Assembly: GCA_031280635.1 (NCBI GenBank)
Contig: JAITGK010000150.1
Span: 1-15,118, forward strand
From: Synergistaceae bacterium
GTDB taxonomy: Bacteria > Synergistota > Synergistia > Synergistales > Aminobacteriaceae
Direction of reading: 5' to 3'
DNA: 15,118 nt
Numbering within the stretch: the stretch's first letter is position 1; each line of letters opens with the position of its first letter. Below are positions 1-6,462 of this stretch, piece after piece. Below the pieces are notes generated by a model. It did no database searches. It had not been told where the DNA came from and saw only the letters and a list, made by a program, of their open reading frames with translations. Both the position numbers and the translations under genes were made by a program.

Positions 1-118
1 TGTGGCCCTGTGGCCCTGTGGCCCTGTGGCCCTGTGGCCCTGTGGCCCTGTGGCCCTGTGGCCCTGTGGCCCTGTGGCCCTGTGGCCCTGTGGCCCTGTG
101 GCCCTGTGGCCCTGTGGC
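1..118. repeat. Tandem 8-bp microsatellite (TGTGGCCC)n, ~14 perfect units, running off the window start
   Basis: Direct reading: tgtggccc repeats head-to-tail from base 1 to 112, then a degenerate tgtggcaa. The six-frame ORF 18..242 is just the in-frame translation of the repeat (VALWPCGP iterated), not a gene. Confidence 0.95.
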
Positions 119-420
119 AATTATATCGGATTCTTTGGGCGATCACATCCGTAAAATTCACTATTTTCATCTCATTCCCATAAAAACTTTCATGTTTCCC
201 CGAAACGGAAATTTCAAAGAAAGCTCAAAAACTTATGGGTAAGTTTACTTGATTTTTTCAAAAAAGCAAGACCAGTGAGTTTCGTAGGCAAACGCGTGAG
301 TCCTACGCTGAATCATTGCCGCAAAAGCAATAGCAGTTGTGATAAACTGCTCACTAATCCTTGCGGCGCATGGATTTTCCCTTGAAATAATCCTTACTTG
401 AGCCGCGCTCTCAATCAGCT

Positions 421-514
421 TATAGTGGCTTGCGTAATCACGGCGCGGAAATCAGAGACCAAAAACCGGACATAAATAGCAAAAACTTTGCGAAGAAAAG
501 AGCCAACCGCTATA
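421..514 (+). repeat. Intergenic repeat element, type I copy A (~95 bp), directly 3' of the Crp-family gene
   Basis: About 90% identical to 2085..2180 and to the reverse complement of 10981..11078. Starts tatagtggcttgcgtaatcacggcgcggaaatcagagacc and ends aaaagagccaaccgctata. Confidence 0.85.
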
Positions 515-521
515 ATCACGA

Positions 522-1184
522 TTATCGCGCATCATTGAAAAGTTCAAAGTGACTACGCTGATAGCGCAAGAGTCCTTCGTCTTTCATTCTCGACAACTCG
601 GCGGACATAGCGCTCCTGTCCACCGACAGGTAGTCCGCCAGTTCCTGACGGTTAAACGGTATGTCGAAAGCGTTTCCTCCTGTTAGTTTCGCCCGCTCGG
701 ATAAGTACGACAGCAATTTCTCCCGAGTAGTGCGCTGGGTAACGTGCTCCAGCTTCCGCGTTAGCATAACATTCTTTTCCGCCAATATTCGTGTCAGATT
801 GTAGATCAGCGCCGTATGGAAGTCGCGGAACGACGGACAAGCCGTGAGTATACGCTTGCAGTTCATCAGCAGGATTTCAGCTTCCTCAACGGTCGCTACA
901 CTGACCGGCAAATTCTTGACTCCCGCGCAGGCGAAGGCCTCCCCAAACAACCCACCAGATTCAACACGAGCCAAAATCGACCGGTTCCCCCAAAAATCCT
1001 CGCGCAGCACATGAATCGCTCCAGAAAGCACAATACCTACCGAATCGGCTTTATCCCCCGCCCTGAATATGAAGCCATTCTTCTCGAAACGCTTCTGAAC
1101 GGCGGACAGACAACCCAGTAGCCTCCGCAAATCAGCCTCCCCGATCCCGGCGAACAAAGGGCAAGTTCCCAAAGTCGAATCCAT
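522..1184 (-). CDS. Crp/Fnr-family transcriptional regulator (N-terminal cNMP-binding-like domain, C-terminal HTH)
   Basis: The 220-aa ORF has the family-typical layout: a beta-roll effector domain (GDKADSVGIVLSGAIHVLREDFWGNRSIL..GGLFGE) followed by a C-terminal HTH (TREKLLSYLSE...FDIPFNRQELADYLSVDRSAMSAELSRMKDEGLL). AGGAGGT lies 5 nt upstream of the ATG. Confidence 0.85.
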   Translation of the reverse strand: MDSTLGTCPLFAGIGEADLRRLLGCLSAVQKRFEKNGFIFRAGDKADSVGIVLSGAIHVLREDFWGNRSILARVESGGLFGEAFACAGVKNLPVSVATVEEAEILLMNCKRILTACPSFRDFHTALIYNLTRILAEKNVMLTRKLEHVTQRTTREKLLSYLSERAKLTGGNAFDIPFNRQELADYLSVDRSAMSAELSRMKDEGLLRYQRSHFELFNDAR

Positions 1185-1197
1185 CTCAACCTCCTAT

Positions 1198-1213
1198 GGT
1201 TGTAAAAACAACC
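1198..1213. promoter_or_regulatory. Candidate Crp/Fnr-type operator: inverted repeat GGTTGT-aaaa-ACAACC in the divergent intergenic region
   Basis: 6-4-6 inverted repeat read directly. Its centre is ~65 bp upstream of the ferredoxin ATG, which places it near the -40 position of a class II activation site if the TSS is ~25-30 bp upstream of that ATG. It lies immediately upstream of the regulator's own RBS. Confidence 0.4.
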
Positions 1214-1270
1214 GATTATTTGTTTTTAGGATAGTACGATAAAGCTACAAAATCAAGGGAGGCGCGGTAA

Positions 1271-2026
1271 ATGATACGAAAAATCATCAAGATTGACGAA
1301 GATAAGTGCGATGGGTGCGGACTGTGCGCCACCGCCTGCCACGAGTCCGCAATAGGCGTAGTGAACGGCAAAGCGAAACTCTTGAGGGACGATTACTGCG
1401 ACGGGCTGGGAAACTGCCTTCCCGCCTGCCCCACGAGAGCTATTTTTTTCGAGGAACGGGAAGCCGCGGAGTACGACGAGGAAGCTGTGAAGAAAAATAT
1501 CAAGGAAAAGAAAAAGACGGCGGCGAAAGGTGGCTGTCCCGGTTCCAACGCCCATACTATTCAGCGAGAAACTTCCCAGGCGTCAGGTAAAATGGCGATT
1601 ACCAGCCGCCTGAATCAATGGCCGATACAGATCAGGCTCGTGCCAATCAACGCGCCGTATTTTGAGAACGCGAACCTGTTGGTATCGGCGGACTGCTGCG
1701 CTTATGCCCAAGGCAATTTTCACGAGGAGTTCATGCGTAACAAGATCACTCTCATTGGTTGCTCCAAGCTGGACAATGTGGATTACAGCGAGAAATTGAC
1801 GGAGATCATCGCGCGCAACAACATCAAATCCGTTACAGTGGTAAGAATGGAAGTCCCCTGTTGCGGGGGCATCGAAAATGCCGCGAAGACCGCGCTTAAG
1901 AATTCCGGCAAGAGTCTCGGAGCCAAGATGATTCCCTGGCGAGTGATCACTCTGTCTACCGGTGGTGAGGTGTTGGAAGACTTTCATAGCGGATTGCGTA
2001 ATTGTGAACACCAAAATAGCGTGTAA
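1271..2026 (+). CDS. Iron-sulfur protein: N-terminal 2x[4Fe-4S] ferredoxin domain fused to a Cys-rich C-terminal domain resembling the MvhD/FlpD hydrogenase delta-subunit family
   Basis: CDGCGLCATAC and CDGLGNCLPACP cluster motifs occur at residues 13-55, followed by a Lys/Glu-rich linker. The C-terminal ~150 aa carry ADCCAY, GCSKLD and VPCCGG motifs that follow the MvhD pattern (hydrophobic-CxxCsY ... mCSgR ... C-C). AGGGAGG lies 8 nt upstream of the ATG. The last ~15 codons come from a repeat element (see 1980..2068). Confidence 0.75.
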   Translation: MIRKIIKIDEDKCDGCGLCATACHESAIGVVNGKAKLLRDDYCDGLGNCLPACPTRAIFFEEREAAEYDEEAVKKNIKEKKKTAAKGGCPGSNAHTIQRETSQASGKMAITSRLNQWPIQIRLVPINAPYFENANLLVSADCCAYAQGNFHEEFMRNKITLIGCSKLDNVDYSEKLTEIIARNNIKSVTVVRMEVPCCGGIENAAKTALKNSGKSLGAKMIPWRVITLSTGGEVLEDFHSGLRNCEHQNSV

Positions 2027-2068
2027 AAAGCAGCTACCGCAAAAGTTTTGTTCATAAAAGAGCCAATG
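1980..2068 (+). repeat. Intergenic repeat element, type II variant (~88 bp), overlapping the 3' end of the ferredoxin CDS
   Basis: Begins catagcggattgcgtaat and ends aaaagagccaatggcccc. The middle (agcgtgtaaaaag...cgcaaaagtttt) matches the 14469..14556 copy. Its termini match those of the type I copies. Confidence 0.6.
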
Positions 2069-2084
2069 GCCCCAGGGTGTGTTT

Positions 2085-2180
2085 TATAGTGGATTGCGTA
2101 ATCACGGCGCGGAAATCAGAGACCAAAAACCTGATATAAACACGGCAAAAACTTTGCGCGGAAAAGAGCCAACGGCTCTA
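2085..2180 (+). repeat. Intergenic repeat element, type I copy B (~96 bp), interrupted/abutted at its 3' end by the IS
   Basis: tatagtggattgcgtaatcacggcgcggaaatcagagaccaaaaacctgatataaacacggcaaaaactttgcgcggaaaagagccaacggctcta. Contains the internal direct repeat GCGCGGAAAtcAGAG / GCGCGGAAAagAGCC and a terminal hairpin AGAGCC-aac-GGCTCT. Confidence 0.85.
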
Positions 2181-2190
2181 GATACTGTCG

Positions 2191-2676
2191 TCACGAGACG
2201 CCGACCCAGAGAGCGACGCGTCTGATACGCGCGGCGGCTAGAAACAATGAGGTGTTTTTCGCGTACCTTGTGGCAATCCCTCGCCAGCGTTTTAAATATA
2301 AAAAAGCGTTTTCAACCAGATGCCTGAGTTTATATAAATATTCGTCATACCGCCGAGGCTCCTTACGCTTCCTCTTCGGCGGTATAACTACCCACATACC
2401 GGCTTCTTTCGCTTCGTTGATAATTCCGCCTCTATCATAAGCGCGATCCGCTATAAGATTTTCAGCGTCTATGCCGCCAATCAGAGCCGCGGCCTGAGCG
2501 CGGTCAGCTCCGGTACCTTCTGTAATATGCATTCTGACTGGCATACCATGCGCGTCCACGGCCGAATGTATCTTTGTGTTGAGCCCCCTTTTGTAACGCT
2601 CATATCCTGATTCCCTCCTCTCGCTCCCGTCGCGTGAGGGTGAACCTTGACGCGCGAGGCGTCTATCATCAGCCAC
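2191..2676 (-). CDS. IS5-family transposase OrfB (DDE catalytic C-terminal part), probably expressed as an OrfAB fusion by a -1 frameshift
   Basis: LNTKIHSAVDAHGMPVRMHITEGTGADRAQAAALIGGIDAENLIADRAYD...LKRWRGIATRYAK is typical IS5-family DDE transposase C-terminus. It overlaps orfA by ~195 nt in the -1 frame. An A4G5 tract on the minus strand (plus coordinates 2584..2592) is the likely slippage site. Confidence 0.75.
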   Translation of the reverse strand: MADDRRLARQGSPSRDGSERRESGYERYKRGLNTKIHSAVDAHGMPVRMHITEGTGADRAQAAALIGGIDAENLIADRAYDRGGIINEAKEAGMWVVIPPKRKRKEPRRYDEYLYKLRHLVENAFLYLKRWRGIATRYAKNTSLFLAAARIRRVALWVGVS

Positions 2677-2954
2677 TCAAAGTCCGGCTCAGTTATCAGC
2701 CGCTCCAGCGGGGACTCCCATATTCCCTTGTCCCTCCATCGGCAATAGCGGCGGCGCTTGGTTTTCCTGCCGCCGTAATCTGGCGGCAGGTCGCGCCAGG
2801 GCGCTCCGGCGCGTAAAATCCAGAATACAGCGTTAATGAACAGTCTGTTATCTCTGACTTTCCCTCCCCATGCGCCCTCCCTGCCGGGAAAGCGCGGCAC
2901 CAGAAGGTTCCAGACTCTGTCTGATATATCGTGGCGGTGACGCGCGTTATCCAT
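2481..2954 (-). CDS. IS5-family transposase OrfA (N-terminal DUF4096-like part)
   Basis: MDNARHRHDISDRVWNLLVPRFPGREGAWGGKVRDNRLFINAVFWILRAGAPWRDLPPDYGG...RWRDKGIW is the conserved N-terminal module of IS5/IS427-group transposases. RBS GGGGGAG lies 6 nt upstream. Confidence 0.8.
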   Translation of the reverse strand: MDNARHRHDISDRVWNLLVPRFPGREGAWGGKVRDNRLFINAVFWILRAGAPWRDLPPDYGGRKTKRRRYCRWRDKGIWESPLERLITEPDFEWLMIDASRVKVHPHATGARGGNQDMSVTKGGSTQRYIRPWTRMVCQSECILQKVPELTALRPRL

Positions 2955-3049
2955 ATATTACTCCCCCTGCGCTGTTGTATTTTATGGAGAGATAATAACA
3001 TGATAAATGTCTCGTGACGACAGTATCTAGGTTTTCAGCAGCGGCACAA

Positions 3050-3604
3050 ATGAGCGACGGGACAGGTAAAGGCGGCGCGCTTCTGGCGCTGGATTGTAGT
3101 TTGAAGCGGACCAACGCCGCCGTTCTCTCGCTTTCGGAAGGCGAATTGTTGGCGGTGAAACGGCTTGACATCGGGCGGCGGCAAGTGGTGGAACTCCCCT
3201 TAGCCATGGAGGGCCTCCTTGCCGAGACGGGGAGGAGCTTCGGAGACTTGGGGCTTGTGGCCGTGACCAACGGCCCCGGCTACTTTACGGGTATCCGCGT
3301 GGGAGTCTCTTACGGGGCAGCGCTGGCCCACGGGTTGGGCCTGAAAATCGCGCCGGCCTTCACACTTCACATGCTGACTTTCCCCTGGCTCTCTCAAGCC
3401 AAGACCGTCCTCGTTTTCGCCGATCCCCCCTATAACCAGGGTTGGGGGAAAACGCTGCCTCACACAAACGACCTGGAAAAAATCCTGAAGCGAGACGGGG
3501 TGCTGGTGATGGAATACTCAGCGCGGGAGGCGCTTGATGTCCCCCCCGGTTTGGGTCGTAACGAACACCTGCGCCTACCGCGAGACGGTCGAATGAAAAA
3601 GTAA
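3050..3604 (+). CDS. tsaB: tRNA threonylcarbamoyladenosine biosynthesis protein TsaB (YeaZ family), short form; start uncertain (in-frame ATG at 3014 lies inside the IS inverted repeat)
   Basis: ALLALDCS...AVLSLSEGELLAVKRLDIGRRQVVELPLAMEGLLAETGRSFGDLGLVAVTNGPGYFTGIRVGVSYGAALAHGLGLKIAPAFTLHMLT matches the YeaZ/TsaB core (ILAIDTS..., GRGPGSFTG[IV]RIG). VLVFADPPYNQGW aligns to the VLAAIDARMGEVYW region. The 184-aa length is at the short end for the family. Confidence 0.6.
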   Translation: MSDGTGKGGALLALDCSLKRTNAAVLSLSEGELLAVKRLDIGRRQVVELPLAMEGLLAETGRSFGDLGLVAVTNGPGYFTGIRVGVSYGAALAHGLGLKIAPAFTLHMLTFPWLSQAKTVLVFADPPYNQGWGKTLPHTNDLEKILKRDGVLVMEYSAREALDVPPGLGRNEHLRLPRDGRMKK

Positions 3605-3795
3605 CCGCAACTTAGTAGGAGGTAATCGCAACCTGAGGGAATTAGGATTGCGTTTAACAATGCAAAGCGTTAGAGAGTGAAAATATAAAGTAGATTTGAA
3701 AAAGTAACCGCCGCTTTGAAAGAGCAAGCGCAATGCTGGAAAAGTCGGAAAAAATCCTATTTTTACTTTTCAGCACTAATTTCTCAACAATTTAG

Positions 3796-3838
3796 ATCGC
3801 CGCGTTGATATACTTCGCGGCGGTTTTATTTTTCTTTT
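3796..3838 (+). terminator. Rho-independent terminator (CGCCGCG-ttgatatactt-CGCGGCG followed by GTTTTATTTTTCTTTT)
   Basis: A 7-bp GC stem with an 11-nt loop is followed by a T-rich tract on the plus strand only. It lies ~190 nt downstream of tsaB. Confidence 0.6.
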
Positions 3839-4061
3839 CCCGGAAAAACGCGTCTCGTTTTGCCTATACGGAAGAAATTTTGGGCACAACAAAGCAAAGC
3901 TTGGCGATTTACCAATTTTTTCGCAAATCTTATCGCAATCCCTCTTTTTAACCTATTCTCGGAACCCATCATTTCCCCAGCCACTACAACTTTACCGCCC
4001 GTTTTGTTTTATGCGCACGGCAATTCCGGCTTCAATATGTGGTTTTAGACAGGAAAAAACG

Positions 4062-4136
4062 TTAAAGACCGGAAGAATAAAATCCCACCCACCTCCAATT
4101 ATAGTATAGATGATCAAGATCAAGCGCTAAAACCAT
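4062..4136 (-). CDS. Candidate small protein/leader peptide, 24 aa (MVLALDLDHLYYNWRWVGFYSSGL)
   Basis: An ATG is preceded by AGAAGGAGGTG with an 8-nt spacer, a near-perfect RBS. It is driven by the near-consensus promoter at 4195..4221. It falls below the 60-aa cutoff of the supplied ORF track. Confidence 0.35.
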   Translation of the reverse strand: MVLALDLDHLYYNWRWVGFYSSGL

Positions 4137-4194
4137 ATTTTTTTCACCTCCTTCTATATCATTATCATTTTAGCTTTCAGTTTTATTTTTACCG

Positions 4195-4221
4195 ATTATA
4201 TCATAAATTCTCTTTTGTCAA
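4195..4221 (-). promoter_or_regulatory. Near-consensus sigma70 promoter on the minus strand: TTGACA-N15-TGaTATAAT
   Basis: The minus strand reads ccattgacaaaagagaatttatgatataatcgg. The -35 TTGACA is the complement of 4216..4221 and the extended -10 TGATATAAT is the complement of 4195..4203. The promoter points toward the 24-aa ORF. Confidence 0.5.
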
Positions 4222-4289
4222 TGGACTTGTTTATTTCCCAATTTTAACCTTATAGCGGGTTGCGGTAATGCTAGTATCCGCAAATCCCC

Positions 4290-4317
4290 TATAATGAAAG
4301 GCAATTCATAAAGGAGG
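4290..4317 (+). promoter_or_regulatory. TATAAT -10 box and AAAGGAGG RBS upstream of the Cdc48-like ATPase gene
   Basis: TATAAT lies at 4290..4295. AAAGGAGG at 4310..4317 ends 8 nt before the ATG at 4326. The upstream motif tatagcgggttgcggtaat (4248..4266) resembles the repeat-element 5' end. Confidence 0.45.
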
Positions 4318-4325
4318 AGTTAGGC

Positions 4326-6452
4326 ATGTTCAAGGTAAAAGAGGCCAGCACGGGCGACGCGCACAAGGGCATAGCGCGGATGGACGTCGCCGACATGGCG
4401 ATACTGGGCCTGTCCGAGGGGCAGATCGCCGAAATCTCCGGGAAGAAGACCACCGCCGCCCGTGTCCACGCGCTGAACCCGTCCGATGGGGAGAACTCCG
4501 GGAAGCGCTTCCTCCAAATCGACGGACTGATTCGCGAGAACGCCGTTGTCCTGTTGGAGGACACAGTGACGGTTAGGCGCGCGGAACATCATTTCGCTGG
4601 CAGCGTCACTTTACAACCCCTCACCTCCACCGCCCTGACAGACAAGGAGCGCGACGCGCCCTACATCCTGTCGCTGATGGAGGGTATGCCCCTCACAGCA
4701 GGCGACCGGGTACGGCTCAACCTCTTCGGAACGCGCGTCTGCGACTTCCGCGTGACGGAGACCACGCCGGAGGGAGCCGTGGTGGTCAGCAAGGTCACGT
4801 ATCTGAACCTTTTGAAGAACGCCAAGATCGCTCAGCCGAAAAAAATTTCCTACGAGGACATCGGCGGCCTGGGTTCCCAGATACGCCACATCCGCGAGAT
4901 GATCGAGCTGCCTCTGCGCTTCCCTCAGGTGTTTGAGCGACTGGGCATCCAGCCCCCCAAGGGCGTGTTGCTCTATGGCCCCCCTGGTACGGGCAAAACG
5001 GTCATCGCCCGCGCCGTGGCTAACGAGACCGACGCCTGGTTCACCCACATCTCCGGCCCGGAGATCATCGGGAAGTTCTATGGTGAAAGCGAGGAACGTC
5101 TGCGCAACATCTTCGAGGAGGCCCAGTCCCGCGCGCCATCCATCGTATTCATCGACGAGATCGACGCCATTGCCCCCAAACGGGAGGACATGGGTGGGGA
5201 AAAGCAAGTGGAGCGCCGAGTGGTGGCCCAACTCCTGGCCCTGATGGACGGCCTAGAGTCCCGCGGGCAAATTGTGGTCATCGGCGCGACCAACATCCCC
5301 AACTCCCTGGACCCGGCCCTGCGCCGTCCAGGACGCTTCGACCGCGAGATCTCCATTCCCATCCCCGACCGCAAGGGGCGATACGAAATTCTCCAAATTC
5401 ACACGCGGGGAATGCCCCTGGCCCAGGAGTCTGGAGCGGACGCGGTGGACTTGAAGCGAGTGGCCGATCTTTCCCACGGATTTGTGGGCGCGGACCTGGA
5501 GGTCCTGGCCAAGGAAGCGGCCATGGCCTGCGTGCGCGACGTTCTGCCTCACGTAAACCTCCAGACCCAGGAGATACCCTACGAGAAAGTCTCGACTCTG
5601 GAGGTGAGAATGAGCCACTTCATGTCCGCCCTGATGGAAATAGAGCCCTCCGCCATACGCGAGGTTTTTGTGGAGATACCAGACGTGACCTGGAACGACG
5701 TGGGCGGTTTGGACGCCGTCAAGGAAGAGCTCGTCAACGCCGTTCAGTGGCCCTTGCAGAGGCCGGAACTCTTTGAGCGCTACGCCATTCAGCCGCCTAA
5801 GGGGATTTTGCTGCATGGCCCATCGGGCACGGGGAAAACGCTGCTGGCTAAGGCTCTAGCCAAGGAGAGCGGAATCAACTTCATCTCGGTGAAGGGCCCA
5901 TCTCTGATGTCAAAGTACGTAGGCGAGTCGGAGCGGGCCATCCGTGAGGTGTTCCGCACGGCGAAACAGGCGGCCCCGTCGATTCTCTATTTCGACGAGA
6001 TCGAAACCCTGGTTCCCGTGCGGGGGCGTGACGCAGGCGGCGCGGCGGCCTTTACGGAGCGGGTCATCGGGCAGTTCCTGGCGGAGATGAGCGGCATTGA
6101 GGAGCTGACCGGCGTGGTGGTTCTAGCCACCACCAATCGGGTCGATTTGGTAGATCCAGCGCTTCTGACCGCGGGGCGCTTCGATCTGGTGCTAGAGCTT
6201 CCCCTGCCCGACCCGGCCGCGCGGGAGGCAATCTTCGGTATCGAACTGCGCAAAAAACCCCTGGCGTCCGACGTGGACGTGAAGGAACTGGCGCGTCTGA
6301 CCGAGGGACGTAGCGGCGCGGACATCGCCTTCGTCTGCCGCAAGGCTGCCATGCTGGCCCTGCGCGAGCGATTTTCTCAGGACATGGCGGAGTTTCACGT
6401 GGGTCGGGAACACTTCAACGCCGCGCTCTCATTGATCGCGCTCCGACGCTAG
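4326..6452 (+). CDS. Cdc48/VAT-type AAA+ ATPase (CDC48 N-domain plus tandem D1 and D2 AAA modules)
   Basis: The 708-aa product has an N-terminal double-psi-barrel-like region ([36 protein letters not shown]). It has two Walker A sites (GPPGTGKT at D1, GPSGTGKT at D2) and Walker B sites ([17 protein letters not shown]). SRH/arginine-finger regions ([23 protein letters not shown]) are present. Confidence 0.9.
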
Positions 6453-6462
6453 GAAACAGCGG

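Follow-up and report, generated by a model that had tools for sequence, protein, structure and literature searches.

What are a perfect -35 hexamer, an extended -10 element and a strong ribosome-binding site doing in front of a reading frame of only 24 codons? The question arises in the window analysed here (the whole stretch of 15,118 bp, a complete contig of a metagenome-assembled Synergistaceae genome from a termite gut), on the minus strand of the spacer that precedes a CDC48-type AAA ATPase gene. The original prediction, made from the sequence letters, offered as candidate functions a small protein or toxin, a RiPP-like precursor, or a leader peptide whose downstream target is an RNA or was lost. 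We weighed these readings together with those of a non-coding RNA, a chance assembly of motifs and a gene start left behind by rearrangement.

Signals of the minus-strand cassette

Direct reading of the minus strand gave, in order, a -35 hexamer, an extended -10, a Shine-Dalgarno sequence (SD), an ATG, a 24-codon ORF and a stop codon, which confirmed the observation. The -35 hexamer TTGACA (4216..4221) is a perfect consensus, and the extended -10 TGaTATAAT occupies 4195..4203 (TATAAT 4200-4195), with TGn directly upstream of the TATAAT-like hexamer as in extended -10 promoters of the sigma-70 type. The two elements are separated by 15 nt, below the usual 16-18 nt of sigma-70 promoters and hence suboptimal, and because the consensus promoter scanner demands 16-18 nt between -35 and -10, this promoter was not listed by it. 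Promoters with a TGn extended -10 can largely do without a -35. The predicted transcription start lies near 4188, which would leave a leader of about 50 nt before the ORF.

The SD AGAAGGAGGTGA (4144..4155, minus strand) forms 10 Watson-Crick pairs and one G-U pair with the canonical anti-SD sequence, and it is the strongest on the contig when compared with the SDs of 11 other contig ORFs. The ATG (4136-4134) lies 10 nt from GGAGG and 8 nt from GGAGGTG, and the start therefore shows complementarity to the 16S 3' end (AAGGAGGTGA), a spacing within 5-13 nt and an ATG, as an SD-led start should. The ORF (4062..4136, minus strand; direct reading and ORF list) encodes the peptide MVLALDLDHLYYNWRWVGFYSSGL and ends with TAA (4064-4062). 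Its C-terminal end is rich in aromatic residues as predicted, with six of them, the three Tyr falling in the last 14 residues and not in the last 13. A further SD-like GGAGGTG is found inside the ORF, within 4103-4090 (repeat D5). The surrounding spacer (3605-4325) measured 721 bp with 38% G+C, in agreement with the AT-rich spacer of about 720 bp first described.

An inverted repeat (I11) could fold the 5'-UTR into a hairpin at 4126..4174 (minus strand), in which 4174-4163 pairs with 4137-4126, containing the AUG, and the SD lies in the loop. Its fold of -8.2 kcal/mol (z = -3.3, equalled by 1 of 200 shuffles) was obtained in a sub-window picked post hoc and is weak evidence, and the stability of the entire 191-nt 5' RNA was not unusual (z = +0.74). 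The hairpin may be regulatory according to this folding model.

Chance expectation and empirical control

The chance model was a first-order Markov model of the spacer itself, evaluated analytically for both strands. Per spacer it expects TATAAT alone about once, TGnTATAAT 0.04 times, AAGGAGGTGA 7e-4 times, TTGACA with the extended -10 3e-5 times, a lenient composite (extended -10, then GGAGG-N5-12-ATG within 20-150 nt) 2.6e-4 times and the exact composite jointly about 2e-10 times, all of these being upper-bound impressions, with patterns defined after the site was seen. The empirical control agreed with the Markov expectations. Related Synergistales loci, 0.96 Mb in total, contained 8 further instances in which promoter, GGAGG and ATG are combined, every one of them before an ORF of 56-472 codons, and AGGAGGTG-N3-10-ATG headed an ORF of at least 53 codons at 24 of 26 sites in related DNA. 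Further, the promoter of the pyr operon on this contig reads TTGACT-17-TATAAT, which shows that promoters of the sigma-70 consensus are native here. Since the signals exceed chance and the control concurs, the site is a genuine, non-random gene-start cassette, and such signals are diagnostic of gene starts in this clade; the claim that their combination is improbable by chance thus stood on both counts.

AT-rich DNA is known to generate spurious promoters and -10 elements (PMC7229825). That the cassette is no biological unit at all, its motifs having met by chance in AT-rich DNA or its spacer being an assembly chimera, draws on the abundance of -10-like hexamers in such DNA, with TATAAT alone expected about once here, and on a difference in G+C and GC3 across the spacer (GC3 0.61-0.64 in the left genes, 1-3000, and 0.72-0.81 in most right genes, 4300-12700). 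This contrast could reflect a foreign left part or a mis-join. Spurious -10 elements nevertheless leave the full promoter, the 11-bp SD and the well-placed ATG unexplained, the lenient and exact joint expectations speak against coincidence, the composites of the control mark real genes, both flanks are Synergistaceae-like and the join does not lie at a repeat. We give this explanation hardly any credence.

Coding status of the 24-codon ORF

The length of the ORF is unremarkable, as the probability of 23 further open codons after an ATG in spacer composition is about 0.25. Its GC3 is 0.33 versus 0.56-0.81 in the contig genes, and its CAI-like index of 0.40 stands against 0.59-0.75 for the contig genes and lies below that of random open 25-codon spacer windows (0.476 +/- 0.055). 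The 24-mer MVLALDLDHLYYNWRWVGFYSSGL gave no match in NCBIfam (E up to 10), Pfam (E up to 1), PHROGs or PADLOC, and tblastn gave none in plasmids, phages and 94 related loci (among the matches listed). A search of 5.8 billion protein clusters for a known protein with this N-terminus, for which the query was a tandem duplicate of the 24-mer owing to the 40-aa minimum, returned only two clusters with shared 5-residue words, neither of which scored. The original prediction had named conservation of the reading frame in relatives as a touchstone, and by tblastn and blastn no relative holds the sequence, which formally counts against it; the comparison is a weak one, since CDC48 protein identity to the nearest known relative is no higher than 90%. 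The 24-codon frame is thus without support as a conserved gene, having neither relatives nor a coding signature nor partner genes.

Could the ORF still be a young, lineage-specific small-protein gene, its 24-aa aromatic-rich peptide a selected product that is strongly transcribed and translated and perhaps controlled by the AUG-sequestering hairpin? The strongest SD on the contig combined with a full-consensus extended -10 would suit such a gene, signals of this kind are nearly always true gene starts in the clade, and the 5'-UTR hairpin pairs the AUG (z = -3.3). ORFs so short are unreported by gene callers, hence their absence from databases says little. The missing coding signature, a length compatible with chance and the absence of the sequence from all relatives searched argue in the other direction, as do the lack of an own terminator, of a signal peptide, of a transmembrane segment and of a partner gene, and the location in a recently rearranged, derived spacer. 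On this evidence we regard such a gene as the main and a serious rival, though less likely than not. The stronger version, in which a newly born or acquired, strongly expressed Trp/Tyr-rich peptide of 24 aa has a real role, for example in signalling or as an antimicrobial, and arose where a spacer recently took the place of an ancestral gene in an uncultured termite-gut Synergistaceae, appears unlikely.

Two other frames of the region were considered as genes and rejected. A hydrophobic 43-aa frame with a basic tail (LILIIYTIIGGGWDFILPVFNVF...KPHIEAGIAVRIKQNGR; 3992-4123, minus strand, TTG start) overlaps the ORF; as a hok/mok-like gene it is without SD and without relatives, and an exhaustive HMMER search against 1.84 billion representatives returned one hit only, a spurious one that a repeat protein had inflated. 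The frame has probably arisen as a by-product of the T-rich sequence here. A frameshifted 100-aa gene (4136->3826) gave no Pfam or PHROGs match with its spliced translation, and the AT-rich composition also speaks against it.

The downstream stretch and RNA elements

Behind the ORF lies an AT-rich untranslated stretch (3605..4061, minus strand) in which the ORF list, Rfam and folding revealed neither a gene nor a recognised RNA nor a terminator on the minus strand. The longest minus-strand ORF between 4061 and the convergent pseudogene has 52 aa, without SD and without family, and fragments of the stretch had no match in Pfam, PHROGs or PADLOC. The claim that no minus-strand gene precedes the convergent tsaB therefore holds in that nothing exceeds 52 aa, and it needs amending in that the supposed tsaB is an in-frame tsaB'-'rsmD chimera. 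Rfam gave no match at the gathering score over the window and nothing above noise when 3500-4400 was searched at E up to 10. As a positive control it detected a PyrR leader at 12666-12778 with 50.5 bits, which is just below the Rfam gathering score of 54 and for that reason absent from the default search. Folding of the 273-nt downstream stretch was no better than its shuffles (z = -0.57), and a terminator scan of 3400-4500 gave no terminator-like site. By folding, an intrinsic terminator composed of a GC-rich hairpin (3797-3826) and a T-run is located on the plus strand at 3794..3840; its hairpin reaches -21 kcal/mol (z = -4.1), and in the minus orientation -16.6 kcal/mol (z = -1.7) without a U-tract. 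No alternative terminator/antiterminator hairpins were found on the minus strand.

These results bear on two readings that place the function in RNA or in regulation. The first holds that the promoter's product is a non-coding or antisense RNA, for instance one that extends into the tsaB'-'rsmD transcript at its 3' end, with an incidental SD and ORF. Some 450 nt of RNA behind the ORF would be left untranslated, and the transcript would converge on a plus-strand unit whose end is the terminator 3794-3840. Chance would nevertheless supply an 11-bp SD followed at 10 nt by an ATG only about 7e-4 times or less, the two RNA segments fold no better than their shuffles (z = +0.74 and -0.57), Rfam gave no match, conservation is lacking, and the antisense target is a pseudogene, all of which makes this reading very unlikely.

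The second takes the peptide for a leader that sensed the supply of aromatic amino acids for a since-deleted operon, with ribosomes stalling at Y-Y-N-W-R-W-V-G-F-Y. Six aromatic codons in ten positions, a length equal to that of TnaC, an AT-rich composition typical of leaders and gene loss in the neighbourhood accord with it. Against it stand the absence of a co-directional gene downstream, of alternative hairpins and a minus-strand U-tract and of an Rfam leader match; no relative keeps an operon behind a similar leader, and no attenuator is known to mix Tyr, Trp and Phe codons. A leader acting on an RNA target within 3605..4060, as was first proposed, found no backing in Rfam, in the fold (z = -0.57) or in a minus-strand terminator, while the variant with a lost target is compatible with a rearranged spacer that bears an IS element and a pseudogene. 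We consider a leader of this sort improbable.

Gene order of the contig

From left to right the contig carries genes for a Crp-type regulator and a ferredoxin-domain (Fer4) protein, an IS5-family element, tsaB'-'rsmD, the spacer and CDC48 (4326-6452, plus strand), which diverges from the cassette; a phosphoribosyltransferase, a 456-aa protein, the minus-strand pyrR-pyrB-pyrC-pyrF operon and an ankyrin-repeat protein follow to the right of CDC48. The insertion sequence (853 bp, 2178..3030, minus strand) has perfect 22-nt terminal inverted repeats CTAGATACTGTCGTCACGAGAC (repeat I1), CTAG at both ends and two overlapping minus-strand transposase ORFs in a frameshift-type arrangement (DUF4096, 2481-2954; DDE_Tnp_1, 2191-2676), and its insertion lies 19 nt before the tsaB ATG (3050). 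This IS5-type element looks young or recently active.

The frame at 3050..3604 (plus strand) is, by its profile matches, an in-frame chimera of the N-terminal half of tsaB and a C-terminal part of rsmD. Residues 23-137 match positions 1-115 of the 212 of the TsaB profile TIGR03725, residues 128-174 match positions 120-168 of the RsmD profile TIGR00095, and residues 133-178 share 85% identity with P0122, the sole RsmD relative found. The RsmD part comprises about 70 C-terminal residues and includes the DPPY motif. Judged from these matches, tsaB'-'rsmD is most simply read as a deletion-fusion pseudogene that is open throughout its length. P0122, which might have led to the ancestral rsmD neighbourhood, could be placed on no contig.

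Several further features of the contig were observed. A direct repeat of 28 nt with 82% identity (TGAAAAAGTAACCGC...) occurs at 3594-3621 and 3697-3724 (plus strand), where the first shares sequence with the stop codon of the rsmD fragment and the second is found 103 nt further downstream; the repeat is possibly a scar of the rearrangement. At 4260-4283 (plus strand), in the expected place of the CDC48 -35 and just upstream of the conserved TATAAT 4290-4295, there is an imperfect palindrome TTGCGGTAATGCTAGTATCCGCAA, which from its position could be an operator for the CDC48 promoter. A related motif, GTAAYCGCAA, is also present at 3601 and 3622, and its 4 matches in the spacer versus 1.6 expected are not a significant enrichment. 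The pyr operon has its promoter at 12824-12796 (minus strand, 11/12 consensus), followed by the PyrR-binding leader with a terminator-like hairpin (12707-12671) and then pyrR. The 456-aa ORF (7407-8777, minus strand) has a GC3 of 0.56, below its neighbours, and gave no match in Pfam, NCBIfam or PADLOC. The best NCBIfam matches of the ankyrin-repeat protein (13067-14224, minus strand) were Legionella Dot/Icm Ank effectors, all far below cutoff, and ankyrin-repeat proteins of such kind are typical of host- or protist-associated bacteria.

Related loci and the origin of the spacer

Genome and metagenome scans with the CDC48 protein yielded 94 related loci, which three further relatives brought to 97 (among the matches listed). 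The closest relatives were termite-gut Synergistaceae MAGs with a CDC48 identity of at most 90%, and the 5.8-billion-cluster protein set held no relative above 90%. By blastn and tblastn, spacer positions 3605-4288 were unalignable to any of the 97 loci (among the matches listed). The only part of the spacer region that aligned with a relative was 4289-4330, which contains the CDC48 TATAAT and 5'-UTR (-10 at 4290-4295; element 4289..4325, plus strand; alignment A1) and shares 93% identity with the nearest relative, L001. This relative itself carries IS4-like transposase remnants in its own CDC48-upstream region (520-936).

When the gene order upstream of CDC48 was compared, relatives with 86% CDC48 identity (L095 3268-4001, L096 2-507) were found to have a co-directional polysaccharide deacetylase gene that ends 35-70 nt before CDC48, and the same kind of ORF lies upstream of CDC48 in the Fretibacterium loci L007, L009, L016, L019 and L022. 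On the basis of these alignments, a co-directional polysaccharide deacetylase is the putative ancestral neighbour of CDC48 in Synergistaceae and Fretibacterium, and the spacer is best seen as a derived feature of the window's lineage that replaces the arrangement polysaccharide deacetylase -> CDC48. In the termite-gut clade nearest the window, the deacetylase-CDC48 context is broken in several different ways. Given these broken contexts and the transposase remnants of L001, the CDC48-upstream region looks like a rearrangement hot spot. Two other origins of the spacer were tried and rejected: a decayed ancestral deacetylase gene, for which tblastn against the window gave noise only, and the leader of a mobile element or resistance gene, for which blastn of the spacer against phages and plasmids gave no match and two pattern scans of viral contigs came back empty.

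A proposed orphaned gene start

Taken together, the cassette lost, or never had, its gene body, which narrows the choice to a relic or a very young small ORF. We favour a gene start that was orphaned by rearrangement and is probably still transcribed and translated, and would put its likelihood a little short of even. A sigma-70-type RNA polymerase would initiate at about 4188 from the extended -10 promoter, the leader of about 50 nt would present the 11-bp SD, and ribosomes would initiate at AUG 4136 and terminate 24 codons later. The transcript would continue through AT-rich untranslated DNA without an intrinsic terminator and presumably end by Rho or decay. We infer that the promoter, the RBS and the first codons of a gene (or of an operon leader) remain, and that the body would have been removed when the ancestral deacetylase -> CDC48 arrangement gave way to the present spacer. 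If the orphaned start is the right explanation, the 24-aa peptide is probably still made, as an incidental product without selected function.

Several lines of evidence argue for the orphaned start. Its signals go beyond chance and all 8 of the other composites head ORFs of 56-472 codons; the coding signature is absent (length P ~0.25, GC3 0.33, codon adaptation below random spacer windows); the spacer is derived and is neighboured by an IS with perfect 22-nt repeats and by the tsaB'-'rsmD fusion; and no relative of the peptide was found. Other points weaken it. There is no recognisable remnant of a gene body downstream, so the reading requires a clean deletion just after the start. From the start codon onward the composition is AT-rich, which leaves room for no more than a few codons from a typical GC-rich native gene. 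Three perfect signals would not outlast long neutral decay, which implies either a recent event or selection, and selection that keeps the signals intact would favour a young small gene instead. Lastly, pairing of the AUG in the 5'-UTR hairpin (z = -3.3) could serve to regulate a gene that is still alive.

An active cassette would illustrate that, in the rearranging genome of a symbiont, promoter and RBS signals of full strength can be retained, or can emerge, where no conventional gene follows, and such sites would be a source of unannotated micro-peptides and of pervasive transcription. Were the peptide new and functional, the origin of a small gene would have been caught in the act with its expression signals fully mature. 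As it stands, the observation is useful for annotation, adding to a rearranged locus a small ORF so far unannotated, a pseudogene and an IS, and it opens no new question; features of this kind are ordinary in genomes that undergo rearrangement.

Comparison with known systems

In its working the cassette resembles any SD-led gene start of bacteria. We compared it with type I toxins, RiPP precursors, attenuator leaders and peptide pheromones; most of these readings fail a defining feature and none gains positive evidence. With D6, D8, H9 and R15 in its sequence, the 24-mer offers no unbroken run of about 18-20 hydrophobic residues that could span a membrane, and an antisense promoter scan (consensus only) gave as its sole nearby plus-strand match 4141-4168 (9/12), which points away from the ORF; the suggestion of a toxin is thereby left without a transmembrane stretch and without a consensus promoter placed to make an antisense RNA. 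The proposal of a RiPP precursor fared no better, since no maturase, peptidase or exporter (radical SAM, YcaO and Lan proteins included) was present among the 13 large contig ORFs scanned with Pfam or NCBIfam, and the 24-mer had no similarity to RiPP precursor families in NCBIfam (E up to 10) or Pfam (E up to 1).

Attenuator leader peptides such as TnaC (24 aa) and TrpL/PheL resemble the cassette in their similar length, their cluster of aromatic codons and an AT-rich leader-like region behind a strong promoter, but the cassette lacks their downstream gene, terminator/antiterminator pair and Rfam match. The ComS/XIP and SHP precursors of RRNPP systems have 17-35 aa and aromatic C-terminal halves. 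Like them, the cassette consists of a very short ORF standing by itself behind strong signals, with aromatic residues concentrated in the C-terminal half (NWRWVGFY); unlike them, its peptide has no basic-hydrophobic N-terminal export region and its host belongs to the Synergistaceae and not to the Firmicutes. No Rgg/ComR-type or TPR/HTH receptor gene was adjacent or among the large contig ORFs scanned. The resemblances to TnaC and to ComS/XIP may serve as leads only.

Bacterial small proteins of < 50 aa found by ribosome profiling share with the cassette an own promoter, a strong SD, an ATG and a short unannotated frame. Most of the validated ones are membrane-spanning or conserved in at least a genus, whereas the 24-mer lacks a transmembrane segment, conservation and a coding signature alike. 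Orphaned gene starts are 5' stumps beside IS elements and pseudogenes in bacterial genomes that decay or rearrange; here no remnant of a lost gene was identified, and the AT-rich composition starts at the ATG. With such stumps the cassette shares an intact promoter, RBS and start codon and a short out-of-context frame, as well as a young IS and a deletion-fused pseudogene nearby and a gene order that differs from the ancestral one.
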